Shown: positions 21,814 through 35,227 of the stretch, piece by piece
Position numbering within the stretch: the stretch's first letter is position 1
Layout of the letters: every line of letters starts with the position of its first letter
From: Bacteroidota bacterium
Lineage (GTDB): Bacteria; Bacteroidota; Ignavibacteria; Kapaibacteriales; UBA2268
NCBI GenBank assembly: GCA_021824625.1
Contig: JAKAKE010000186.1
Span: forward strand, 3,995 to 67,994
Reading direction: 5' to 3'
DNA length: 64,000 bases
Program-made: the position numbers and the translations under genes
The notes under the pieces: generated by a model
Seen by the model: only the letters and a program-made list of their open reading frames with translations
Database searches by the model: none
What the model was told of the DNA's origin: nothing

Positions 21814-23409
21814 ATGGCAAAAGGGAAGATTTTAATTGTTGAGGACCAAGCGGTAGTTTCTCAGAATATAAAGCTGATGCTTAAGTATAATGGCTATGAG
21901 GTAAGTGGAATTGCAGCTACGGCAGATGAAGCGATTCAGATGATAAGTGAAGAAAAACCCGATTTAATTGTTATGGACATAGCCCTTCCGGGCAAACTCG
22001 ATGGGATTGACGCTACGAATATTATCACCGAAAAATGGAATATTCCTATTATTTATCTCACTGCACATTCTGATGAAACAACACTTCAGAGAGCAAAAAA
22101 TACTCATAATTATGGCTTCATTATCAAAGATATTGACCTGAAATCACAGATTCCAATCTTTATTGAATTTGCATTATTCAAACATAAGCTAATCGAAGAA
22201 CAGCAAAATGCCTCCAAAGCCTTGTCAGAAAATGAAGAAAAGTTCAGAATGATTGTTAATTCGGCAAGAGACGGCATTATTTTCATTGATAAAATGGGAT
22301 TAATATCTTTCTGGAACAACGCTTCTTTGGAAAAATTCGGTTATAATGATATAACATCTGAGAATGTTTTCTTTTGGCAGATTATCTCAATTCCCAAAAT
22401 TAAACTTTACCAGGAAAAGTTTGCTGATATTGGTGCAAAAGGCGAAAGCGGACTTGTCGGTAAAATGGTTGAATTTGTTGCTATAAGGAAGGATGGCTCG
22501 ACTTTCCCCGTTGAAATTATTTTTTATCCGATAAAAATCCAAAACAACTGGTACACTTGCTGTATTATTCGTGATATAACAGTTCGCAAGGAAGCAGAAG
22601 AAGAAAATGCTAAACTCATCGAGGAATTGCGAATATCGAGGGAAATGGTTGAGCAGAATGCTAATGAATTATTGCTTGCTAACGAAAAATTATACGAATC
22701 GGAAGAAAGCCTAAAAATCCTGAATGCTAATAAAGACAGATTCTTTTCTATACTTGCTCATGACCTTCGTGGACCTTTTCAGGGCTTGCTCGGCTTTTCA
22801 AATATACTGCATAAAGACTTTAAAAAAATGAAAACAGAAGAAGTACAGGATATAGTTGATGACCTTTATCATTCTGCAGAGCAAATTTACAAATTACTTG
22901 ACCATCTGCTTCTGTGGTCAAGAATACAAAGGGGGGTACTTGAATTTAAACCTGAACCCTGCAGTCTGAATAATATTGTCGGAGTCAATATTGATTTATT
23001 GAAATACCTGGCAAACCGAAAAAACATCGAATTAATATCGGAAATTAATGAAAATTTTGAATTCACTTCCGACCCGAACATGATTAATACCGTCCTTAGG
23101 AATTTGATTTCTAATGCTATTAAATTCACCGGAAGCGGCGGTAAAATTATAATATCTGCTAAAGACACAAAAGACGGTTTCTTTTTAGTTGGTGTCAGCG
23201 ACGATGGAATTGGTATTCTTGAAGAAGATTTGCAGAAACTTTTTAAGATTGACATGTATTTTACCAGTCCCGGAACTTCGGGAGAAAAAGGAACAGGATT
23301 AGGATTGGTTTTGTGTAAGGATTTAATTGAAAAATGCAAGGGTGAGATATTTGTCGAAAGCCAGGTTGGCAAAGGTACGACCTTTTCTTTTAAAATTCCG
23401 TTTAAATAG
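21814..23409 (+). CDS. Hybrid sensor: receiver + PAS + HisKA + HATPase_c
   Basis: KILIVEDQ...DLIVMDIALPG receiver. PAS-like middle region. SILAHDLRGPF H-box. GTGLGL G2 box. Confidence 0.85.
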   Translation: MAKGKILIVEDQAVVSQNIKLMLKYNGYEVSGIAATADEAIQMISEEKPDLIVMDIALPGKLDGIDATNIITEKWNIPIIYLTAHSDETTLQRAKNTHNYGFIIKDIDLKSQIPIFIEFALFKHKLIEEQQNASKALSENEEKFRMIVNSARDGIIFIDKMGLISFWNNASLEKFGYNDITSENVFFWQIISIPKIKLYQEKFADIGAKGESGLVGKMVEFVAIRKDGSTFPVEIIFYPIKIQNNWYTCCIIRDITVRKEAEEENAKLIEELRISREMVEQNANELLLANEKLYESEESLKILNANKDRFFSILAHDLRGPFQGLLGFSNILHKDFKKMKTEEVQDIVDDLYHSAEQIYKLLDHLLLWSRIQRGVLEFKPEPCSLNNIVGVNIDLLKYLANRKNIELISEINENFEFTSDPNMINTVLRNLISNAIKFTGSGGKIIISAKDTKDGFFLVGVSDDGIGILEEDLQKLFKIDMYFTSPGTSGEKGTGLGLVLCKDLIEKCKGEIFVESQVGKGTTFSFKIPFK

Positions 23410-24379: not shown

Positions 24380-24715
24380 AATGTGATTTATGTGATTAAT
24401 ATGATTATGATTAACCTCACACTTTAGTGTTTGGGGGTATAAATGCAGCAATCGTCTCATCTCGTATCTCAACCTTCATGCTGAAGCATTGGGTTATTCT
24501 AATTCCATCACACTTGAATAATTTCCCAGGAATTATCTCCCTTTTTTTTTAAAGCAGGAAACTGATGGTCATTATGCTCCTCTCAGTATGACAATTCTGT
24601 GTTTACTTACTATTTCTTGGAATAATGGATGTTTTTTCGTAATTATGTATGTTATAATATAATTGCGGGTTTATGGTTTCTGTCAAAATTCGGTTTGTTA
24701 ATTCAATAATTTAAT

Positions 24716-25912
24716 ATGCGTTTTTTATCTTTTGATAATATAATTACAACAGGGGTAATCTTACTTATCCTTAAGTTTTTCTTTGTGATATTCCAGATTG
24801 ATTTTCTAAATCAGTTGAATAATCAGATTCAGGATTTTCAGATTAATGATATAGTGTTTTCGAGACTGAAGGACAAGAATGCCGTTGAGCCTGATACTAA
24901 TATTGTGATTGTAAATATAGGAGAGTTGAAAAGAGATAAGATTGCAGAACAGATAAATATTATTAACCGTTTTGAACCGAAAATGATAGCATTAGATGTG
25001 GCTTTTTCGAAGGTAAAAGGTGATGAATTGGACAAACCTCTTGCGGAAGCTCTTTCAAAAGTTAAGACACTTGTACTTGTGAGCAGGCTCTCTTATGATA
25101 AAGATAGAGATGAAATAAATCTCATGAAATCAATTCCGTTGTTTACACAATATGCACAGTGTGGCTTTGCAAATTTTATTGATGAGGAAGATTTCAGGAC
25201 AGTGAGGAAATTCAGTCCGAGAGAGTATGTTAATAAGGACCCTGTAATGGCTTTCAGTGTGAAAGTTGCAGAATTATACTACCCGCCTGCCGTGAAGAAA
25301 CTTTTCGACCGTAATAATGAATCGGAGATTATTTATTTTGAAAGGAATTTGAATAAATACAGGGTGATTGACTGTGAGGAAGTTTTTAGCAAGAGGGACG
25401 GTTTTGGTTTTGTTAAGGGTAAAATTGTTCTTTTCGGATATCTTGGCCCTGATGTTAAAACTTTAAGCACTGAGGATAATTTTTATACGCCGATGAATTC
25501 TAATTATATCGGCAAATCCTATCCCGATATGTATGGGGTTGTAGTTCATGCAAACATTATATCAATGCTGTTGAATGGGAGATATATTAATGCGATGCCG
25601 GAAATTTATGTGTTAATTCTGACAATTGTATTGGCATATCTGACAATGGCGGCGTTTTCATATCTCAGGTATAGATTTGCCGAGGCTTATGAGAGCTTAA
25701 GTCTTGTTTTCATTTTAGCAGAATCGGCATTTTTTTTCTTTGTAATGTTTTCATTGTTGTATTATTTTAATTATTATCTGAATCTGAAAAATATGTTTTT
25801 TGTTCTTGCCATATCCGAAATGATATCGGAATCTTATTTCGGTTCAATAAAACCTTTGACAAAAAGAGTTATTGATAAAATCGGAAGTAAATTTAAACCG
25901 ACAAAAATGTAG
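24716..25912 (+). CDS. CHASE2-domain membrane protein without output domain, paralogue A
   Basis: One N-terminal TM helix, then an extracytoplasmic block of about 280 aa (IVIVNIGE...MIALDVAF...CGFANFIDEEDFRTVRKF...GKIVLFGYLG...YGVVVHANIISMLL), three C-terminal TM helices, then the stop. Confidence 0.7.
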   Translation: MRFLSFDNIITTGVILLILKFFFVIFQIDFLNQLNNQIQDFQINDIVFSRLKDKNAVEPDTNIVIVNIGELKRDKIAEQINIINRFEPKMIALDVAFSKVKGDELDKPLAEALSKVKTLVLVSRLSYDKDRDEINLMKSIPLFTQYAQCGFANFIDEEDFRTVRKFSPREYVNKDPVMAFSVKVAELYYPPAVKKLFDRNNESEIIYFERNLNKYRVIDCEEVFSKRDGFGFVKGKIVLFGYLGPDVKTLSTEDNFYTPMNSNYIGKSYPDMYGVVVHANIISMLLNGRYINAMPEIYVLILTIVLAYLTMAAFSYLRYRFAEAYESLSLVFILAESAFFFFVMFSLLYYFNYYLNLKNMFFVLAISEMISESYFGSIKPLTKRVIDKIGSKFKPTKM

Positions 25913-25969
25913 AATGTTAAATGTCGAATACAAAATGCAAAATGTAAAATTGATAATGAATAATGTAAA

Positions 25970-27220
25970 ATGAAATTAAAAAGAAAGTATATTGACACTG
26001 ATCCGATGATGAGCACGATACTTGTATTTGTTACTTTGGTATTGCTGCCCTTGTTCCTGAGTTTTAATTTCTTTTTACCCTTAAAGAATGCTTTTTATGA
26101 TTTTGCAATGACAGACATCAATTATGCAAAGCTTCGTTCGCCGGAAAAGGAACTGGCTGACACAAATATTGTATTGATTGATATAGGCGGAATGTCAAAT
26201 TCAGAGTTATCGGATTTACTCAATATACTCAACCAAAATGAGCCGAGAGTGATTGGCATTGATAAGGAGTTGAGGGATGATGATGATACGGCAGCTAATA
26301 ATAGTCTGGCTAAAGCTCTGTCGAATGTGAACAGGCTCGTTTTAAGCAACAGGTTAATATATAATGAAGATACCAAGTTATTCGATTCAATATCCGAATC
26401 TTCCGGGATTTTTACAAAATATGGAATTTCAGGATTTACGAATCAGATTACGATTGATGACAGAAGCCATGAAACAGTCAGAACATTCAAAATATACACA
26501 AAGGTATATGCAGGTGCAGATTCACAACTTGCCCGAAAAGAAACAGGTTCACAGCTTGTCCTGAAGGATTCTATTGTGCATCCTTTTCCGGTTGAAGTTG
26601 TTCTCATGTTTGACCCTGAAAAGGTACAAAATCTGTATTCCAGGAATAATGCTGAAGAGATTATTAATTTCAGGGGATACTTTAACAAGTATTTTTTCAT
26701 AGCCGGTGAACAGGTGCTGAACTATGAATTTAATCCTAATTTGTTTAATGGGAAAATTTTACTGCTCAGTTATTTTGACCCGTTCAATACAAGCCCGTTA
26801 TTTGGATATAAATACTATAGTCCCTTGGATTCAAATTACACCGGCAAGTCATTTCCCGATATGTATGGAATCGAAATCCATGCAAATGTTATATCAATGA
26901 TAATAAATGAAAATTATTTTAACATAATCCCGTCTTGGTTAGCTATAGTATTAGCTTTTATATTGTGTTACCTGATGATAGTTGCGTACAAATACATTGA
27001 CGGGAAATATCAGACCTGGTATGAATTATTAAGTCTTGTAATTTTTGTTATGGTATCTTTGATTTTGTTGGGAGCTAATTATTATTCTTACCATCTTTTG
27101 ATGTTGGACTTGAACCTTAATTATGCACTATTTGCTATAATATTGGCAAGTCCAATTTATGAAGCTTATACTAAGTCAATCAAACCTCTTTTACTAAGAA
27201 TTTTTAAAAATAAATCGTAG
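25970..27220 (+). CDS. CHASE2-domain membrane protein without output domain, paralogue B
   Basis: Same layout as paralogue A: IVLIDIGG...VIGIDKEL...SGFTNQITIDDRSHETVRTF...GKILLLSYFD...YGIEIHANVISMII, then 3 TM helices. Confidence 0.7.
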   Translation: MKLKRKYIDTDPMMSTILVFVTLVLLPLFLSFNFFLPLKNAFYDFAMTDINYAKLRSPEKELADTNIVLIDIGGMSNSELSDLLNILNQNEPRVIGIDKELRDDDDTAANNSLAKALSNVNRLVLSNRLIYNEDTKLFDSISESSGIFTKYGISGFTNQITIDDRSHETVRTFKIYTKVYAGADSQLARKETGSQLVLKDSIVHPFPVEVVLMFDPEKVQNLYSRNNAEEIINFRGYFNKYFFIAGEQVLNYEFNPNLFNGKILLLSYFDPFNTSPLFGYKYYSPLDSNYTGKSFPDMYGIEIHANVISMIINENYFNIIPSWLAIVLAFILCYLMIVAYKYIDGKYQTWYELLSLVIFVMVSLILLGANYYSYHLLMLDLNLNYALFAIILASPIYEAYTKSIKPLLLRIFKNKS

Positions 27221-27228
27221 AGGTATAT

Positions 27229-28200
27229 ATGCACAAAATATACGGAATTTTAAAATTTACTGTTATTTTAATTCTATTGATTTATACTACTTCTTCTCAG
27301 GCGAATGAATTCAGGATATTAGCTGCAAAGGGACAGGTTCTAATTCAAAAGAATAGTAAAGGAAATTGGGAAAAAATCTATACAGGCGGGCTAATCAATG
27401 CTAATGACAAAATTAAGCTTATGCCCGGCTCCTACCTGGGTTTAGTACACAGCAAAGGTAGAACAATCGAGTTGAAGAAGGATGGCATATATTCGGCAAT
27501 TAAGCTTTCCAAAGAGCTTGCCGGTATGAAATCAACCATGACCGGTCAACTTGCCAATCTAATAGTAAACGAGGTGGGAAGCTCATCCGGTTTTTTATCC
27601 AATAAGGATAGTAATAAATCAATGAATCAAACCGGTGCCGTCAATAGAAATATTGACTCAGATTTAATCAAATCAAACTCATTACTGGTTTCTGCCGACA
27701 AAATACTTATTCTGTCTCCAATCAAAGAACACTTGCTTAATCAGATAGTCGTTTTCGAATGGAAAAGATTACCATCCGAAAAGGAATATGAATTTTATCT
27801 GACAGACCGATTTGACAGACTTGAGTTTTCGAAAACAACTTCAGATTCCTTTCTTTTGGTCGATACAAAACAATTGAAACTTGATAAAGGTATGTATTAT
27901 TTTTGGAGAGTAGTTGTCAAAAATAAGCCTGAATTTAAATCCGGCGAAGCCTGTTTTATGATTTTAACCGACCCTGAAATATCAGGATTAAACGATACAT
28001 TGAAGCTTCTTAAAGAAGAATTAGGAAGCGAACAAACCGCTACATCAAAACTTATGTATGCAGTATTTTTTGAGAAATATAATCTTATCAGTGAAGCTAA
28101 GGCTTCTTATCTCGATGCTTTAAGAATCGCTCCGGATGTCGAGGTTTATAACACCCTTTATAATAATTTCCTGAGAAGGCATTATCAGTCAGGATATTAA
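27229..28200 (+). CDS. Secreted FecR-like + DUF928-like protein, paralogue 1
   Basis: Signal peptide (..SSQA/NEF). FRILAAKGQV...SYLGLVHSKGRTIELKKDGIY. YEFYLTDRFDRL...LKLDKGMYYFWRVVV...EACFMIL. C-terminal helical APDVEVYNTLYNNFL. Confidence 0.6.
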   Translation: MHKIYGILKFTVILILLIYTTSSQANEFRILAAKGQVLIQKNSKGNWEKIYTGGLINANDKIKLMPGSYLGLVHSKGRTIELKKDGIYSAIKLSKELAGMKSTMTGQLANLIVNEVGSSSGFLSNKDSNKSMNQTGAVNRNIDSDLIKSNSLLVSADKILILSPIKEHLLNQIVVFEWKRLPSEKEYEFYLTDRFDRLEFSKTTSDSFLLVDTKQLKLDKGMYYFWRVVVKNKPEFKSGEACFMILTDPEISGLNDTLKLLKEELGSEQTATSKLMYAVFFEKYNLISEAKASYLDALRIAPDVEVYNTLYNNFLRRHYQSGY

Positions 28201-28237
28201 TTATTTTGTATGTTTAAATAATTATGGAAATAAGAAA

Positions 28238-29167
28238 ATGAAGAAAATATTATTTTACATTTCTCTATTGCTCATATTATTTGTTTTTACTGCCTCAGCC
28301 AAAGATTTTAAATTCTGTGTTCTTGGTAAAAAGGGAACAGTTCAGGTAAAATCTTCAAAATCTAAAAAACTTGAAGATGTCAAGACAGGTGATAAATTGT
28401 TCTTGAATGACAATCTTGTTCTGGTAGAAGGTTCATATATCGGTTTGGTTCATTGTAACGGCAAAACGATTGAAATTACCAAACCCGGGAATTACAAAAT
28501 ATCTGCTTTATCGAATACCGCAGAAGGCAAAAAGACTTCGGTTTTACCTAGAATTGCAGATATGATTTTTCATAATGTAAGTAGAAATAACGAGCTGTTG
28601 TCTGACAAAGACCAAAAAACCCAGATGAAATCCGGAGGTTATATTGAAAGAGGAATAGGTGAAGTAACATTACCGATTATCTCACCGTTGAAAAACCATT
28701 ATATCAATAAAAATATTTCACTTTGCTGGAACAGTTACCATGGCAATCCTGATTTTGAGTTCAAGCTTATGAACAGATTTAATAAAGTTTTGTTGACCAA
28801 AACATCAACTGATACATGTATCAACTTCGATGCCGAATCTCTTAAACTTGAAAAAGGAACTTATTATTTTTGGACCGTAAATCTTGCAAATGATGATGAT
28901 TACAAATCGCAGGAGGCATGTTTCAAGCTGTTGACTGACAATGATATTTCATTATTAAATGATACTCTTAAACTGCTTCAGGAGGAGTTGGGTAACGATA
29001 ATTCTGCACCGTCTGAAATTGTTTATGCCTATTTCTTCGAGCAGTATAATCTTTATGACGAAGCTATAAATGCCTATCGTCAAGCAATTAAATTAGCTCC
29101 GGATATATATGATTATGTTGTGTTATATGAAAACTTTTTAACAAGAGCAAAATTTTCCGGAAGGTGA
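28238..29167 (+). CDS. Secreted FecR-like + DUF928-like protein, paralogue 2
   Basis: Signal (..ASA/KDF). FKFCVLGKKGTV...SYIGLVHCNGKTIEITKPGNY. FEFKLMNRFNKV...LKLEKGTYYFWTV. APDIYDYVVLYENFL. Confidence 0.6.
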   Translation: MKKILFYISLLLILFVFTASAKDFKFCVLGKKGTVQVKSSKSKKLEDVKTGDKLFLNDNLVLVEGSYIGLVHCNGKTIEITKPGNYKISALSNTAEGKKTSVLPRIADMIFHNVSRNNELLSDKDQKTQMKSGGYIERGIGEVTLPIISPLKNHYINKNISLCWNSYHGNPDFEFKLMNRFNKVLLTKTSTDTCINFDAESLKLEKGTYYFWTVNLANDDDYKSQEACFKLLTDNDISLLNDTLKLLQEELGNDNSAPSEIVYAYFFEQYNLYDEAINAYRQAIKLAPDIYDYVVLYENFLTRAKFSGR

Positions 29168-29178
29168 AATAATTTTCT

Positions 29179-30117
29179 TTGAAAAAAAAAGGGTCAAACA
29201 TGAGGTTATTATTTATTTTACTTTTTATTGTTTTGTTACTTAACCCTCTTCAGGCACAAAACTATGATTTTTGTGTGCTTGGTAAAGTGGGGACAGCACT
29301 TGTTCAATTAAACGGGAACAAGGATTGGACTGAATTGAAAACCGGAGACCAGTTAAAGCGAAATGATATTATTTCAATAAAAGACAATTCCTACCTCGGA
29401 CTTGTCCACTCTTCCGGTAAAACTATCGAGTTAAGACAATCCAGCCAATATAAAGTATCCAAGCTGGATGATGATTTATCAGAGAGCACAACTTCAATTC
29501 TCCCTAATCTTATCGAAGTAATCTTCGGAAAAAAATCCAACATCAAAGATATTTTGGAATCGAGGCGTAATAAAAAAGTTTTTTCAAAAGGTGCTATTGA
29601 GAGAAGCATTGAAAACGAACAAATAACCATACTTTCTCCAAAAAAAATCATTCTAATTGCCGATGATGTCGCATTATTATGGAGTAAGTTCACTGCAGAA
29701 GGTAAATATGAAATCAAGATAACCGACAGATTCAACAAGCTCATTTTCTCAAGAGCTGTTGATGACACTACTATTTCAATAAATCAGAAAGAGTTGAATT
29801 TAGACAGAGACCAGTATTATTTTTGGCGGGTGAATTTATTATCAAATCCTGAAATCAGGTCAGATGAAGGTTGTTTCCTGTTCTTATCCGATAAGAGAAT
29901 TGCAGAGATTAAGAAAAATATCGAACAAATGAAAAAGGAAATAGGAGGTAAAGAGACTTCGGTATCGAAGATTCTTATGGCATTCTATTACGAAAACAAT
30001 CTTCTTGTGAATGAAGCAGACAAAGAATTCAGGGAGGCATTAAACATGTCTCCGGATGTTGCCGATTACATTGATTTATACGATGCATTTAAAATGAGAA
30101 TGAATATTCGGAGGTAG
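29179..30117 (+). CDS. Secreted FecR-like + DUF928-like protein, paralogue 3
   Basis: Signal (..LQA/QNY). FCVLGKVGTA...SYLGLVHSSGKTIELRQSSQY. YEIKITDRFNKL...LNLDRDQYYFWRV. SPDVADYIDLYDAF. Confidence 0.6.
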   Translation: MKKKGSNMRLLFILLFIVLLLNPLQAQNYDFCVLGKVGTALVQLNGNKDWTELKTGDQLKRNDIISIKDNSYLGLVHSSGKTIELRQSSQYKVSKLDDDLSESTTSILPNLIEVIFGKKSNIKDILESRRNKKVFSKGAIERSIENEQITILSPKKIILIADDVALLWSKFTAEGKYEIKITDRFNKLIFSRAVDDTTISINQKELNLDRDQYYFWRVNLLSNPEIRSDEGCFLFLSDKRIAEIKKNIEQMKKEIGGKETSVSKILMAFYYENNLLVNEADKEFREALNMSPDVADYIDLYDAFKMRMNIRR

Positions 30118-30124
30118 TAAAAAT

Positions 30125-31162
30125 ATGAAATTTAAAAATATTATTATGATGATGATTATTTTGTTATCATATTTAAGCTTAAATGCCCAGGAGCCGGAAT
30201 TTAGAGTTCTTGGAAAAAAAGGAAATGTTAATTATCAGTCAAAAAGCAGTGGCTGGACGGATGTAAAAACCGGAGATAAACTTTTTAAAAATGACAAGGT
30301 CAAAGTAAGCGGAAATTCTTACTTGGGCCTTGTTCACTCATCAGGTAAAACTGTTGAAATAAAAAAAGAAGGCACATATAATATTTCAAAATTGGCTAAG
30401 GATGTTTCTTCATTCCGAAGTTCAACCACCCAGCGATTTGCTAAATTTGTCGTTGATGAAATAACTTCAGGAGATGATTTGCTCAAACAAAAGAAATATA
30501 AAAGGAGCATGGAAAATACCGGTGCAGTCGACAGAGCGACAGGCGGGGATATTAGTTATATGGCAACTTTTTCTTCTTTGTCCGGTACCGACCTTTCGCA
30601 ATATTCTGCATTAAACGAGGCTATTGACTGCCTGGTTAAAACCGATAAAAATTCCATCAGGATTAAATATCCGAGGACTTCTTATGTAATTAGCAGTGAT
30701 GTTGACTTTGTCTGGTTTAAGAATAATACTGTCTCAATTTATGAATTTGTAATAGTTGACAGGAATGATAATATATTATATTCAACCAAAACATCGGATA
30801 CAACACTCCAAATTAATCTTTCCGGGTTAAAACTTTTAAAGGGCATGAATTATTACTGGTTTCTTCGAAGCAATGATTTGAAATCAGACCAGTATTGCAT
30901 CAATTGGATAAATGATTATGACATGAAGAGGCTCGATGAAGATTTGGAGCCTTTGCTGGACGGAATGGCAAAAGGTAAGGATGCAGTAACCCTGATGCTG
31001 CTAGCTTCGATTTATGAAGATGAGAATATAATGAACAAGGCTATTGATGCGTATCAAGAGGCTCTGCGCCTCGAACCTGATGTTGACGGATACAGAACCT
31101 TATATGCACGATATCTGAGCCGTATCGGGTTAGATGATGAAGCAATCAGAATATTGAAATGA
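30125..31162 (+). CDS. Secreted FecR-like + DUF928-like protein, paralogue 4 (carries an extra insertion of about 35 aa)
   Basis: Signal (..LNA/QEP). FRVLGKKGNV...SYLGLVHSSGKTVEIKKEGTY. YEFVIVDRNDNI...LKLLKGMNYYWFL. EPDVDGYRTLYARYLSRIGLDDEA. Confidence 0.6.
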   Translation: MKFKNIIMMMIILLSYLSLNAQEPEFRVLGKKGNVNYQSKSSGWTDVKTGDKLFKNDKVKVSGNSYLGLVHSSGKTVEIKKEGTYNISKLAKDVSSFRSSTTQRFAKFVVDEITSGDDLLKQKKYKRSMENTGAVDRATGGDISYMATFSSLSGTDLSQYSALNEAIDCLVKTDKNSIRIKYPRTSYVISSDVDFVWFKNNTVSIYEFVIVDRNDNILYSTKTSDTTLQINLSGLKLLKGMNYYWFLRSNDLKSDQYCINWINDYDMKRLDEDLEPLLDGMAKGKDAVTLMLLASIYEDENIMNKAIDAYQEALRLEPDVDGYRTLYARYLSRIGLDDEAIRILK

Positions 31163-31163
31163 T

Positions 31164-32432
31164 TTACAATGCTTTTTTACCTATATCTTTTCTGAAATAC
31201 ATGTTTGAGAAATTTATTTTTCTAACGGCATTGTAGGCTTGCTCTAAAGCTGTTTTCAGTGTGGTACTTACACCGGTAACACCAAGAACTCTTCCTCCGT
31301 CACTAAGGAGTTTCCCTTCATTTAGTCTTGTACCTGAATGATAAACTATTGCTCCTGTTTTTTCAACTTCTTCGATACCTGTTATTTCAAATCCTTTTTC
31401 GTATTCATCGGGATAACCCTCGGAAGCAAGGATAACACAGCAGGCATGTTTGTTTGAAGAGTTTTTAATTGCTGATGTATCAATCTTTCCGCATGCTGCC
31501 GAATAAAGCAGTTTGGCAAAGTCTCCTTCGAATATTGACAAAACAGACTGGGTCTCGGGGTCACCGAAACGAACATTGAATTCTACAACTTTTGGTTCTT
31601 CGTCATGTATCATCAATCCCGCATACAAACAACCGGTGAAAGGAAATCCTTCTGCTCTCATGCCTTCAATTGCCGGTCTGAGAATTTTCTCATGGACTTT
31701 ATTCATAACACTTTCTGTAACAATTGGAGCAGGTGAGTAAGCACCCATGCCTCCGGTGTTTTTCCCGAGGTCATCATCCATGGCTCTCTTATGGTCTTGC
31801 GATGACGGTAGAGTGATGTAGTCTTTACCATCACAAATTGCAAGTATGGAAGCTTCAACACCCAATAAAAACTCTTCTATAACAACTGTTTTACCGGCAT
31901 CGGAAAACAATCCATCAAACATGCTGTCAAGTGTTTGCTGTGCTGATTGTATTTCCTGGGCAATGATTACACCTTTGCCTGCGGCGAGTCCGTCTGCTTT
32001 GAGGACAAGAGGAAATTTACAGGTATTAAGATATTCATCGGCAGTCTTTTTGTCTTCTTCTGAAAATATTTTATATTTGGCAGTTGGAATGTTGTGCCTT
32101 GCCATGAAATCTTTAGCGAAACCTTTTGACGATTCGAGCCTGGCGGCTTGTTTTGAGGGACCGAACACTTTAATTCCATTTTCAATTAATATATCGGTTA
32201 TACCGTCGGCAAGTGGTTTTTCGGGGCCAACAACAACTAAATTTATATTATTAGATTTACAAAAATCTATAATGAAATTAAAATCAAATTTTTGAATTTC
32301 TGCTTTAGGTGCAAACTGCCAAATCCCGGGATTACCCGGATAACTGTATAAGTTGTCCGATGAAGGCGATAGCCTTAAGGCACGTGCTATTGCATGTTCC
32401 CTGCCGCCACCGCCTATTAATAAAATATTCAT
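31164..32432 (-). CDS. purD: Phosphoribosylamine-glycine ligase
   Basis: MNILLIGGGGREHAIA...VLKADGLAAGKGV...ATP-grasp motifs. 422 aa. Confidence 0.92.
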   Translation of the reverse strand: MNILLIGGGGREHAIARALRLSPSSDNLYSYPGNPGIWQFAPKAEIQKFDFNFIIDFCKSNNINLVVVGPEKPLADGITDILIENGIKVFGPSKQAARLESSKGFAKDFMARHNIPTAKYKIFSEEDKKTADEYLNTCKFPLVLKADGLAAGKGVIIAQEIQSAQQTLDSMFDGLFSDAGKTVVIEEFLLGVEASILAICDGKDYITLPSSQDHKRAMDDDLGKNTGGMGAYSPAPIVTESVMNKVHEKILRPAIEGMRAEGFPFTGCLYAGLMIHDEEPKVVEFNVRFGDPETQSVLSIFEGDFAKLLYSAACGKIDTSAIKNSSNKHACCVILASEGYPDEYEKGFEITGIEEVEKTGAIVYHSGTRLNEGKLLSDGGRVLGVTGVSTTLKTALEQAYNAVRKINFSNMYFRKDIGKKAL

Positions 32433-32779: not shown

Positions 32780-35227
32780 GTGATTGACAGTAGGATGGAG
32801 CCTGAGTACAAAGGTATTGTTCCGAAAGGGCCGATGATTGATATTGAAAGGTTTATTTCTGAAAGAAGGAATGCCCAAGATTTTCTTCAGTATTCCGGGG
32901 AGATGCACAGAACTTTTTTCGATGATTTACCGATAGGTGCTTACAGAACTACTGAAGACGGGAAGTTTTTAAGCGTGAATAAATCATTAGCTTTACTTCT
33001 GGGGTTTGATAACACGGAAGAGATAAAAAATTATAATGCGGGGGATTTTTATTTAAGGTCTGAAGACAGGACAGCACTGATTAAGAAGCAAAAGAAGGTT
33101 TATGGTATTGTTAAAGCAGAATATAAAGTAAAGCGTATGGATGGAGATGTAATTTGGGTCAGGGATAATGGAAAAGTAATTTATAAGGATGACGGCAGTG
33201 TTGATTACCTGGAAGGTGTCATTGAAGATATCACAAGCCAAAAATTAGCACATGAATCGTTAATCGAAAGCGAAGTTAAGTATAGAAAACTTTTTGAAAA
33301 TTTATATGATATATATTTCAGTTTAACCATTGACGGAGAATTCACTGAAATGTCTCCGTCAGCCGAACCAATTTTAGGATTCGGAATAGAGGAAATAATT
33401 GGTAAATCAATTTTTGATTTTGTAGATAACAGGCAATTCCTGAATGATGCTTTATCTGATTTAAAAAAATCATTCAAAGTACTTAATCGCACCCTCCAGA
33501 TAAAAAATAAAAAGGGAGAAATAATTCACCTTCTTGTGAATGCTTATTTCTATAATGATTATATTAGAAATAAAAAAAGCATTGCAGGAATTGCAAGAGA
33601 TATAACAAGACAAAAGCAAAATGAGATTGACTTACTTGAAGCACGTGAATATGCCGAATTGATTAACCGTGTTACTCCAAGTTGTACTTTTACTATTGAT
33701 AAACTTGGGAATGTTACAAGTTGGAATGAAAGAACTGCCATCATAACAGGTTATCCTGCTTCAGAAATTATTGGGAAGAAATGTACTCTCTGTCTATGGA
33801 ATAACCATGAGAAGCAATGCGCATTTTTTAATGATAAAATCAAAAAACCGGTTTTTGGCAGAGAAGTGGAAATCAAAACCAAGAGTGGTGAAGTGAGAAT
33901 AATTGCAGTCAATTTAGATTTACTTCGTAATTCTTTTGGTGAAGTAATCGGAGGCATCGAAAGTTTCGATGATATCACCGACAGGATAAGAACTGAAGAG
34001 GCTTTATTCTGGCAGGCAGGTGTTAATCATGCTATTGCTGATTTATCCAAAGCGATTATTTCCTTACCACTGGTTAAAGATACCTCAAAACTAATTCTTG
34101 AACATGCGAGAAGACTTACTAATTCTACTTTCGGTTTTATTTCGGTTTTTAATCAAGAAACTTTGAAATTCGAGATTTCGGCAATAATGACAAAGCAGAA
34201 CAAGGATTATATTCATTGGGATTATTATCCTGATGATGTTGAATTTAATGAGTTCTGGTATTGGACTTATATTAATAAAAATTATATTATGACTTCATCA
34301 ATTAAATCTGATGAAAGACTTAACTCGATTTATCAATACAATAAAGATATTGAACATTTTATTTCAGTACCTTTGGTATCCAACTCTGAAGTTATAGGTA
34401 TAATATCAATTGGTACAAAGGAAAAAGGTTATGGGGAAGATGACCTCGAAATTTTAAACCGCATGGCATCTTTGTTTACTGTTGTCCTTCAAAGATTTAA
34501 AGCAGAGGAGGACATAAAAGCCGCATTAGCAAAAGAACAAGAGTTGAGTGAATTGAAATCGCGTTTTATTTCTATGATTTCCCATGAGTATAGAACTCCT
34601 CTGACAGCTATTGCTTTAACAAAAGATTTGCTTAAGGAGCATTGGGACAGAATTGATTTTCAGACGAGAGCAGAGCAGTTGGATAAAATTCAATACTCGA
34701 TTGACGTAATGAATTCACTGCTGGATGATATTATTATGTACAGCAAAGTCGAGGTAGGAAGGCAGATTTACAGGCAAAGGAAAATTAATTTAAGCCAGTT
34801 TTGCCTCGATATTGTTAATGAAATGCAATATACTGCTAAGTACAAGGTGAAAGTCAATTACAAATTTGAAGGTGATAATAAAATCGTTTATTCCGATGAA
34901 AACCTTGTCAGGCAAATTATAAGGAATCTGATTTCAAATGCAATTAAATTTTCTTCTCACGGGTCTGAAGTTGATTTTAATATCGTTTCAAATGATAATC
35001 AGATACTTTATACTGTTACCGATTATGGTATTGGAATTCCCGATGATGACAAGGAAAATATATTTGAACCCTTCTTCAGGGGGAAAAATATTGTTACAAC
35101 ATCGGGTACTGGCTTAGGCTTGTCAATTGTCAAGAATGCTGTAAATATTCTCGGGGGCAATGTTTCATTTAATAGTGAAATTGGCAAGGGGACTTCATTC
35201 ACAGTAGTAATTCCAGGTAAAAAGTAG
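32780..35227 (+). CDS. Multi-PAS/GAF sensor histidine kinase
   Basis: Several PAS-like blocks, a GAF-like block, H-box SMISHEYRTPL, N box NLISNAIKFS, and GTGLGLSIV. Confidence 0.85.
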   Translation: MIDSRMEPEYKGIVPKGPMIDIERFISERRNAQDFLQYSGEMHRTFFDDLPIGAYRTTEDGKFLSVNKSLALLLGFDNTEEIKNYNAGDFYLRSEDRTALIKKQKKVYGIVKAEYKVKRMDGDVIWVRDNGKVIYKDDGSVDYLEGVIEDITSQKLAHESLIESEVKYRKLFENLYDIYFSLTIDGEFTEMSPSAEPILGFGIEEIIGKSIFDFVDNRQFLNDALSDLKKSFKVLNRTLQIKNKKGEIIHLLVNAYFYNDYIRNKKSIAGIARDITRQKQNEIDLLEAREYAELINRVTPSCTFTIDKLGNVTSWNERTAIITGYPASEIIGKKCTLCLWNNHEKQCAFFNDKIKKPVFGREVEIKTKSGEVRIIAVNLDLLRNSFGEVIGGIESFDDITDRIRTEEALFWQAGVNHAIADLSKAIISLPLVKDTSKLILEHARRLTNSTFGFISVFNQETLKFEISAIMTKQNKDYIHWDYYPDDVEFNEFWYWTYINKNYIMTSSIKSDERLNSIYQYNKDIEHFISVPLVSNSEVIGIISIGTKEKGYGEDDLEILNRMASLFTVVLQRFKAEEDIKAALAKEQELSELKSRFISMISHEYRTPLTAIALTKDLLKEHWDRIDFQTRAEQLDKIQYSIDVMNSLLDDIIMYSKVEVGRQIYRQRKINLSQFCLDIVNEMQYTAKYKVKVNYKFEGDNKIVYSDENLVRQIIRNLISNAIKFSSHGSEVDFNIVSNDNQILYTVTDYGIGIPDDDKENIFEPFFRGKNIVTTSGTGLGLSIVKNAVNILGGNVSFNSEIGKGTSFTVVIPGKK

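Follow-up and report, generated by a model that had tools for sequence, protein, structure and literature searches.

A six-gene cassette at positions 24,716 to 31,162 of a 64,000-nucleotide stretch of Ignavibacteria DNA (contig JAKAKE010000186.1 of the Kapaibacteriales assembly GCA_021824625.1; the whole stretch is termed the window) encodes two CHASE2 membrane proteins without an output domain (i.e. ORF1 and ORF2) and four secreted paralogues (i.e. ORF3-6) that, on the evidence of a predicted structure, resemble MtxA of magnetotactic bacteria. The CHASE2 domain was defined in 2003 and is a widespread bacterial sensor domain. Domain identities, predicted folds, conserved adjacency and co-evolution of the two protein families were established and are described below. 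A mechanism in which the MtxA-like proteins would act as periplasmic co-receptors that dock on a CHASE2 membrane module signalling in trans is tentatively favoured, at somewhat less than even odds. Six same-strand open reading frames (ORFs) had been marked as a candidate undescribed envelope sensing system in a first-pass annotation made from the sequence without database searches, and a single operon-like cassette with two kinds of product is the best explanation of their arrangement.

CHASE2 proteins without an output domain

Both ORF1 and ORF2 were matched by the Pfam CHASE2 model (PF05226), ORF1 with an E-value of 2.4e-24 and 86.8 bits over residues 23-307 (model positions 7-252 of 257) and ORF2 with an E-value of 6.1e-18 and 65.7 bits (model positions 2-255 of 257). 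These scores are far above the gathering cutoff of 26.3 bits, in agreement with the identity first assigned to the two proteins, and CHASE2 was the sole Pfam domain matched in either. The proteins are paralogous (33% identity, E about 1e-65). Hydropathy placed transmembrane segments at residues ~3-34 and 291-351 of ORF1 and ~10-39 and 315-394 of ORF2. An AlphaFold2 (AF2) model of ORF1, generated from a 59-sequence alignment with a predicted local distance difference test (pLDDT) score of 83.7 and a predicted template modelling (pTM) score of 0.82, exhibited an alpha/beta ectodomain and a C-terminal bundle of three transmembrane helices, with helices at residues 6-25, 296-320, 325-351 and 358-393 of a chain that ends at residue 398. 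Hydropathy and the model agree on the topology of a CHASE2 protein, namely an N-terminal transmembrane helix, an extracytoplasmic domain and three further transmembrane helices. The one-plus-three arrangement noted in the first-pass annotation was thus retained, with its extracytoplasmic block of about 280 residues shortened to nearer 250-270.

No output is fused after the last transmembrane helix, beyond which ORF1 stops within 5 residues and ORF2 within a few; the two proteins differ in this from classical CHASE2 sensors, in which a cyclase, kinase or GGDEF domain follows in the cytoplasm. When 5.8 billion proteins were searched with a profile of four sequences, >700 CHASE2 homologues were retrieved (E <= 0.001), of which the best 120 were 367-454 amino acids (aa) long and contained CHASE2 as their only Pfam domain, bearing out the earlier claim that an output is lacking. 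Output-less homologues derived from Ignavibacteria and Bacteroidota, including Fulvivirga, Rhodocytophaga and Cyclobacteriaceae. Judged from these sequences, a large family of CHASE2 proteins is natively built without an output.

Conservation within this family peaked at residues 261-280 of ORF1 (0.81), overlapping a low-pLDDT loop at 259-271, with invariant columns at P259, G266, D271, M272, G274, H278, A279 and N280. The conserved stretch of residues 255-284 is a candidate site for contact with a partner or ligand. The invariant positions of the output-less family were not shared by all CHASE2 proteins, and identities to cyanobacterial and proteobacterial CHASE2 sensors were 19-24%. Neither a profile search of the family against solved structures in the PDB nor a fold search of the ORF1 model against the PDB detected a relative (no structural neighbour below an E-value of 0.01), and the caspase-like and periplasmic-binding-protein-like relationships checked in the fold search were not seen. 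A CHASE2 gene split into ORFs of 88 and 307 aa, by a frameshift or as a pseudogene, was observed in a Cyclobacteriaceae metagenome-assembled genome (MAG; locus L019:4473-5729).

Secreted MtxA-like paralogues

Pairwise identities among ORF3-6 were 29-39% (E 5e-43 to 8e-78), and the three shared blocks noticed in the first-pass annotation were visible in the alignment. By hydropathy, ORF3-5 each contain one N-terminal hydrophobic signal-like segment with an Ala/Gln-type cleavage context and no lipobox cysteine. The N-terminus of ORF6 fell below the hydropathy cutoff yet is signal-sequence-like, so that the Sec signals originally ascribed to all four proteins are supported for ORF3-5 and by appearance for ORF6. 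No Pfam or NCBIfam model passed its cutoff in ORF3-6. A family profile search retrieved 61 homologues of ~300 aa without Pfam annotation, and the family grew to at least 677 clusters at 50% identity (E <= 1e-30) when 1.84 billion representative sequences were searched exhaustively with HMMER. All of the 150 relatives listed were full-length proteins of ~300 aa, with no bridge to other architectures and no CHASE2 fusion. In a neighbour-joining tree (no support values), ORF6 was nearest to single-copy Cytophagales genes and ORF3-5 fell in an expansion specific to Ignavibacteria.

ORF4 was modelled with AF2 using a 51-sequence alignment (pLDDT 87.4, pTM 0.82). The model consists, in order, of a signal helix, an all-beta N-domain, a helical linker with a disordered segment at residues 125-140, an immunoglobulin (Ig)/FN3-like sandwich and TPR-like helices. 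The most conserved motif of the ORF3-6 family lies in the N-domain (conservation peak 0.79) and the least conserved part is the Ig-like domain (0.37-0.46). A Foldseek search of the PDB with the ORF4 model returned the C-terminal domain of MtxA (4z29_A) as the top match, with an E-value of 5.3e-6, a probability of 1.0, a template modelling score (target) of 0.56 and 164/176 columns, in a full-length search dominated by the Ig and TPR half; generic FN3 domains ranked next. Support from sequence for a link to MtxA is only a hint. The Pfam MtxA_C model (PF22121) was the commonest non-TPR weak match, in 17/145 family members (best E 0.0018) and 4/51 (best E 0.0083), without reaching its threshold, and ORF3-6 themselves had no MtxA_C match at E <= 1. 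Searched against the PDB, the family profile retrieved TPR proteins only (e.g. the TPRs of OGT, E 9e-7) and not 4z29. Pfam TPR models were below cutoff in ORF3-6 (best 24.3 bits versus 27.8), and the TPR-like part amounts to one to two units, not an array. A further recurrent but sub-threshold resemblance was to the NCBIfam LapA retention module (NF033682), which matched residues ~32-96 of ORF3-6 to model positions 10-68 at 11.8-17.7 bits (cutoff 50) and was weakly matched in 29/51 family members (best E 4e-4).

MtxA of Magnetospirillum gryphiswaldense (i.e. MGR_0208) is 313 aa long; a signal peptide of 24 residues and a beta-rich region (residues 25-110) precede a C-terminal half composed of Ig-like and TPR-like domains, and mtxA is followed by a gene encoding CHASE2 and adenylate cyclase domains (PMC4439547). 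ORF3-6 have the same ~310-aa length, signal peptide, beta-rich N-region, flexible linker, Ig-like and TPR-like C-terminal half and adjoining CHASE2 gene. Length, domain order, export signal and genomic partner are all shared. On present modelling MtxA-like, in the sense of a beta N-domain ahead of an Ig-like and a TPR-like domain, is the better description of ORF3-6; their sequence similarity to MtxA is below every threshold. The N-domains were compared by way of the published secondary-structure description of MtxA, as that half of MtxA has no solved structure. The loci differ in that the window's CHASE2 proteins have no cyclase or other output, the CHASE2 genes precede the MtxA-like genes instead of following them, and two CHASE2 genes and four MtxA-like genes replace one of each.

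Conserved linkage and co-evolution

A motif scan with one genome per species identified 74 loci in Ignavibacteria and Cytophagales, whose six-frame ORFs were searched with hidden Markov models (HMMs) of both families; 69 loci were decidable. In 56/69 of these, an output-less CHASE2 gene was followed directly by a co-oriented MtxA-like gene. Reciprocal look-ups centred on CHASE2 found an MtxA-like gene directly downstream in 4/4 cases, and the same arrangement was present on a Bernardetia plasmid. The linkage, whose conservation had been put forward as a test of the first-pass annotation, was therefore maintained in both related and distant genomes. Cytophagales loci (from Imperialibacter, Fulvivirga, Chryseolinea, Sporocytophaga, Thermonema rossianum DSM 10300 and Shiella aurantiaca, among others) contain one CHASE2 gene and one or two MtxA-like genes, and Ignavibacteria loci contain two CHASE2 genes and one to four MtxA-like genes, the CHASE2 A/B pair being kept in all Ignavibacteria-type loci. 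Three loci (i.e. L005-L007) exhibited the two-plus-four layout of the window with one-to-one orthologues and identical flanks, the ORF1 orthologues being 76-88% identical.

Co-evolution was assessed by a mirror-tree comparison of 38 Cytophagales loci. Pairwise distances of CHASE2 and MtxA-like proteins correlated with r = 0.886, and the partial correlation was 0.77 when the neighbouring MeaB protein was controlled for as a proxy for phylogeny. Conversely, the partial correlation between MtxA-like and MeaB proteins, controlling for CHASE2, was 0.05. These values are suggestive of, but do not prove, a functional coupling of CHASE2 and MtxA-like proteins.

The gene for this neighbour, meaB, which encodes a methylmalonyl-CoA-mutase-associated G3E GTPase, divergently adjoins the pair in 47/66 Cytophagales loci (e.g. 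L002:5602-6591(-), L085:3909-4886(-) and L081:3565-4581(-)); after meaB, no neighbour exceeded 16/66 of the Cytophagales loci, and the window itself lacks meaB. Some Cytophagales loci also contained Nramp and genes related to cobalamin (CobU/T/S/C, a TonB-dependent receptor, Peripla_BP_2 and SucD). In the window, the cluster is flanked by two apparently cytoplasmic histidine kinases, with REC-PAS-HisKA-HATPase (21814-23409) and multi-PAS-GAF-HisKA-HATPase (32780-35227) architectures. Both were kept in L005-L007 and the former was also found in L011, but its absence from L008 and L009 means that the REC-PAS histidine kinase is not a universal partner.

Comparison with other CHASE2 systems

Dedicated periplasmic neighbours also accompany CHASE2 sensors elsewhere, which by analogy appears to be a general rule covering LysM-FecR proteins, FecR-domain plus TPR proteins and DUF928 proteins. 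The first-pass annotation had named FecR, DUF928 and CHAT genes as neighbours of CHASE2 genes, and examples were found in Eleftheria terrae, Calothrix, Nostoc PCC 7120 and Gloeothece.

In Burkholderiales, a 'BiofilmReg' operon comprises a response regulator, a LysM-FecR protein and a CHASE2-histidine kinase, in some cases with DUF4136 (PMC5192318); in E. terrae the order was response regulator, LysM-FecR (FecR E 6e-13) and CHASE2-PAS-histidine kinase. As in the window, a secreted accessory gene stands beside and co-oriented with the CHASE2 gene, and at the level of motifs the N-domain of ORF3-6 (G.V.V...W..vKtGd.L...D.i) resembles the FecR-type pattern. In contrast to ORF3-6, the Burkholderiales accessory protein passes the FecR threshold and carries LysM, and its CHASE2 partner has a PAS-HisKA-HATPase output and a cognate response regulator where the window's CHASE2 proteins have no output.

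The cyanobacterial clusters consisted of a response regulator, a CHASE2 kinase, DUF928 (E 2e-30) and CHAT on a plasmid of Calothrix PCC 7716, of CHAT-CHASE2 followed by DUF928 (E 1.5e-56) on plasmid pCC7120alpha of Nostoc PCC 7120, and of CHAT, DUF928 and CHASE2 in Gloeothece PCC 7424. A small secreted protein (220-260 aa) thus stands beside CHASE2 here as well, with a weak collinear resemblance to the Ig-like and helical half of ORF3-6, and the Nostoc CHASE2 protein likewise has no C-terminal output. Unlike ORF3-6, DUF928 proteins have no beta N-domain, and their profile alignment to the ORF3-6 family was not significant (E 0.35). CHAT proteases in these clusters are separate or fused N-terminally to CHASE2, often with kinase outputs, whereas no CHAT is encoded in the window. 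In the Nostoc protein (L083:3837-6179, with the DUF928 gene next to it) the caspase-like CHAT domain (E 1.4e-15) precedes the first transmembrane helix, indicating that a module of protease type can be linked to CHASE2 on its N-terminal side.

A Campylobacterota cluster contains a CHASE2-adenylate cyclase together with a phosphodiesterase, a FecR-domain protein and a TPR protein (PMC9239204). CHASE2 again lies beside beta (FecR-type) and TPR accessory modules. These are separate proteins in Campylobacterota, with synthesis and degradation of cyclic AMP encoded in the cluster, and are joined in one polypeptide in the window, with no encoded output. For the CHASE2 cyclases CyaD1, CyaD2 and CyaK of Sinorhizobium meliloti, a protein signal reaches CHASE2 via the outer-membrane protein NsrA (PMC13001267). 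This was the sole CHASE2 system found with a known signal route, which runs through a separate envelope protein and not through direct binding of a small molecule. The S. meliloti relay is an outer-membrane beta-barrel acting on a CHASE2 protein with a fused cyclase, as opposed to a periplasmic MtxA-like protein and no cyclase in the window.

Proposed mechanism

ORF1 and ORF2 would probably form an A/B heteromer in the inner membrane, for which the MtxA-like proteins would serve as Sec-exported periplasmic co-receptors or adaptors. A constant handle, formed by the conserved N-domain (SYLGLVHSSGKT) and a linker motif (TGAVER), would dock on the CHASE2 ectodomain at its best-conserved loop (TPLN..Y.GK..PDMYG..HAN), making this loop a docking or ligand site. 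In both partners, the most conserved segments coincided with low-pLDDT segments of the monomer models. The poorly conserved Ig-like domain could be a variable head for envelope or external ligands, in which case the four secreted paralogues would represent four specificities feeding one membrane module. A conformational change would then be relayed by the transmembrane bundle and the short conserved tail to a partner from another locus, for instance a kinase, cyclase or protease, the CHASE2 heteromer being an accessory membrane sensor in trans.

Several observations weigh against this proposal. An MtxA-like gene without an adjacent CHASE2 gene was found in 13/69 loci, in 8 of which meaB adjoins it, so that pairing in cis is not obligatory. 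No conserved signalling partner in trans was found nearby, the REC-PAS histidine kinase being present in some Ignavibacteria loci only and meaB taking its place in Cytophagales. The mirror-tree correlations are inflated by the non-independence of the distances and because both proteins are fast-evolving envelope proteins, and no solved structure related to the CHASE2 ectodomain is available as a guide for modelling the ligand site or interface. Deletion of mtxA in Magnetospirillum, moreover, had no detectable phenotype (PMC4439547).

A bolder form of the proposal is doubtful. In this form the CHASE2/MtxA-like cassette would be a self-contained envelope sensing machine with a signalling route new to CHASE2, leading laterally through the transmembrane bundle and tail to an unlinked partner, and MtxA-like, DUF928 and FecR-type proteins would be general, obligate co-receptors of CHASE2. 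If true, obligate co-receptors would explain what CHASE2 domains 'sense'.

Alternative readings

The main rival is a complex of the envelope without a signalling role, in which CHASE2 would be an anchor or scaffold and the MtxA-like proteins periplasmic adaptors or chaperones for the assembly or tethering of outer-membrane, peptidoglycan or surface-polymer components, with no output needed. None of the best 120 CHASE2 homologues has an output domain and no conserved signalling neighbour was found, as expected for such a complex; Ig-like and TPR domains are generic modules of protein-protein interaction (PMC4439547), the LapA retention module weakly resembled by the N-domain in 29/51 members is a periplasmic plug domain, and the stable synteny in Cytophagales gives the cassette the look of a single-copy core locus. 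Against this, in the other characterised or annotated contexts examined CHASE2 is fused to a kinase, cyclase or CHAT (PMC13001267), and MtxA-like, FecR and DUF928 genes also accompany output-bearing CHASE2 sensors, making the pair resemble a sensory unit. The cassette showed no signature of catalysis or transport, and the invariant residues of the output-less family do not extend to all CHASE2 proteins. A scaffold is on balance unlikely, though a serious contender.

Next in order is a modulator or decoy, where output-less CHASE2 proteins would join complete CHASE2 kinases or cyclases from other loci of the genome in heteromers, tuning them in a dominant-negative manner or by altering specificity, and the MtxA-like proteins would be shared ligand adaptors. 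The CHASE2 fold and transmembrane arrangement are those of output-bearing sensors, and Ignavibacteria have kept two diverged CHASE2 paralogues next to each other, which suggests that members of the family normally heteromerise. No other CHASE2 gene is present within the 64-kb window, however, and the output-less family is well separated at 19-24% identity from cyanobacterial and proteobacterial sensors, with its own invariant residues, which argue for an autonomous function. A decoy role is therefore regarded as distinctly improbable.

Rather than MtxA-like proteins, ORF3-6 might be true if divergent fusions of FecR and DUF928 domains, as they had been filed in the first-pass annotation. Matches to FecR (PF04773; cutoff 24 bits) and DUF928 (PF06051; cutoff 26 bits) were sought in Pfam, and neither occurred at E <= 1 in any of ORF3-6. 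FecR was also without a match at E <= 1 for the consensus of the family N-domain and lay outside the 25 commonest families for both the 51-member and the 145-member sets, i.e. <2/145 members match it. DUF928 was weakly matched in 8/196 members (4/51 and 4/145; best E 7e-4), all far below the 26-bit cutoff. The family consensus gave 10-12 bits (E 0.2) over positions 52-175 (model positions 62-177 of 184), as compared to 106-191 bits for genuine DUF928 proteins. Alignment with hhalign to a 13-sequence DUF928 alignment built from a genuine Calothrix protein gave an E-value of 0.35 and a probability of 0.2%, and alignment to a genuine LysM-FecR protein an E-value of 0.19 and a probability of 0.3%, the probabilities for the two families together spanning just 0.2-0.4%. 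In favour of the fusion, the weak DUF928 matches are collinear, the hhalign alignment reproduces the LSP...F.W and Y.W.V motifs over 85 columns of the Ig-like domain, LipL45, a FecR-domain lipoprotein, weakly matches 2/51 members, and DUF928 and FecR genes are genuine neighbours of CHASE2 genes in other bacteria. MtxA_C is nevertheless a more frequent weak match than either family and is joined by a significant structural match. With every test sub-threshold (the proteins, the 51 and 145 members, the consensus and hhalign), membership of FecR and DUF928 was rejected and the fusion is very improbable. A remote relationship of DUF928, MtxA_C and the ORF3-6 family is plausible but unproven, given the collinearity over the Ig-like domain and the motifs shared there.

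The reading of ORF1 and ORF2 as 3'-truncated pseudogene remnants of kinase or cyclase fusions, named at the outset as a case that would undo the first-pass annotation, can be dismissed as having next to no chance of being right, as nothing was found in its favour, the output-less form is native to a large family (CHASE2-only, 367-454 aa across the best 120 homologues), the C-terminal tail is conserved, just 57 and 8 bp follow the two stop codons, and intact orthologues exist in L005-L007 and in distant lineages.

Novelty and significance

The cassette is in part already described. The CHASE2 and MtxA gene pair is known from magnetotactic bacteria (PMC4439547), so that the claim of an undescribed system is true only in part, and this pair and the neighbourhoods of CHASE2 with FecR and DUF928 are known though uncharacterised. 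As far as the searchable literature shows, an output-less CHASE2 partner as a conserved trait of Ignavibacteria and Cytophagales is new, which preserves that part of the claim, as are the expansion to two plus four paralogues and the recognition of a large unannotated family as MtxA-like. The literature search returned nothing relevant on CHASE2 in Bacteroidota, and DUF928 was named in one paper only.

CHASE2 thus exists as a conserved stand-alone membrane protein in two bacterial lineages, where it is almost always co-encoded and co-evolving with an MtxA-like periplasmic protein. The co-evolving pair, together with the presence of MtxA, FecR and DUF928 neighbours beside output-bearing CHASE2 proteins, supports a general model in which CHASE2 would read its signal via a dedicated periplasmic partner and not directly. 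MtxA itself gains a plausible role as a CHASE2 co-receptor, unrelated to magnetotaxis. Cultured carriers of the cassette are Fulvivirga, Sporocytophaga, Thermonema rossianum DSM 10300, Shiella aurantiaca and Bernardetia.

Organisation of the locus

The features of the cassette are listed in Table 1. The coordinates of the six ORFs, the spacers between them (57, 8, 37, 11 and 7 bp from ORF1 to ORF6, from the ORF listing), the 336-bp gap between an xth-like gene and ORF1 and the 1 bp between ORF6 and purD were all reproduced as first reported. The true start of ORF5 is more likely to be the ATG, because the orthologues are 305-306 aa long; this start would leave a 32-bp spacer after ORF4.

Table 1. 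Genes and features of the CHASE2/MtxA-like cassette, in window coordinates
Feature	Position	Strand	Details
Conserved promoter-like block	24615-24658 (~44 nt)	+	Near-invariant compared with orthologous intergenic regions of L005 and L006
ORF1, CHASE2-A	24716-25912	+	398 aa; inner-membrane; no output domain
Most conserved stretch of output-less CHASE2 family	25478-25567 (ORF1 residues 255-284)	+	TPlN..yaGk.nPDMyGvVvHANi.SMI
Three C-terminal transmembrane helices and short tail	25601-25894 (ORF1 residues 296-393)	+	Tail lagd.lEvyygv.kn conserved; E372 invariant
ORF2, CHASE2-B	25970-27220	+	416 aa; ORF1 paralogue with same topology; no output domain
ORF3, MtxA-like secreted paralogue 1	27229-28200	+	323 aa; family HMM E 2e-93
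ORF4, MtxA-like secreted paralogue 2	28238-29167	+	309 aa; protein chosen for modelling
ORF4 small all-beta N-domain	28307-28498 (residues 24-87)	+	Model strands; motif nsYlGLVHsSGkt.El
ORF4 Ig/FN3-like beta-sandwich	28691-28930 (residues 152-231)	+	Model strands; FN3 and MtxA-Big matches
ORF4 TPR-like four-helix C-terminal domain	28937-29146 (residues 234-303)	+	Model helices
ORF5, MtxA-like secreted paralogue 3	29179-30117	+	312 aa from TTG at 29179; 305 aa from ATG at 29200
ORF6, MtxA-like secreted paralogue 4	30125-31162	+	345 aa; ~30-aa linker insertion (alignment)
purD, convergent	31164-32432	-	Pfam GARS domains

Within the conserved block upstream of ORF1, a perfect TATAAT occupies positions 24653-24658, 58 nt ahead of the ORF1 start codon (ATG), and from its sequence the block is likely to be a promoter. 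A terminator scan detected no convincing terminator-like site between the six genes; scans for promoters and terminators were uninformative in this AT-rich DNA. A riboswitch or leader RNA upstream of ORF1 was considered and rejected, as an Rfam scan of the 336-bp leader returned no match. A role in anti-phage defence, suggested by the cyanobacterial link to CHAT, was likewise dropped on searching the six proteins with PADLOC models, which gave a single marginal match in the linker region of ORF3 (E 9e-4) and none in the other five proteins.

Related loci exhibited differences in the region before the first CHASE2 gene. At L005:1716-2406, the intergenic region is ~350 bp longer, appearing as an insertion when aligned to the window and L006. 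In three distant Ignavibacteria-type loci (L008:2708-3510, L011:2581-3403 and L014:2726-3541), the exonuclease III gene xth ends 4-16 bp before the first CHASE2 gene, as compared to the 336-bp gap of the window, and from this spacing xth and the cassette may be co-transcribed there. L008, L011 and L017 derive from MAGs titled 'uncultured Hyphomicrobiales bacterium' but exhibit Ignavibacteria-type synteny (i.e. beta-CASP, xth, two CHASE2 genes and an MtxA-like gene) and encode proteins 40-63% identical to those of the window; these taxon labels are probably wrong.

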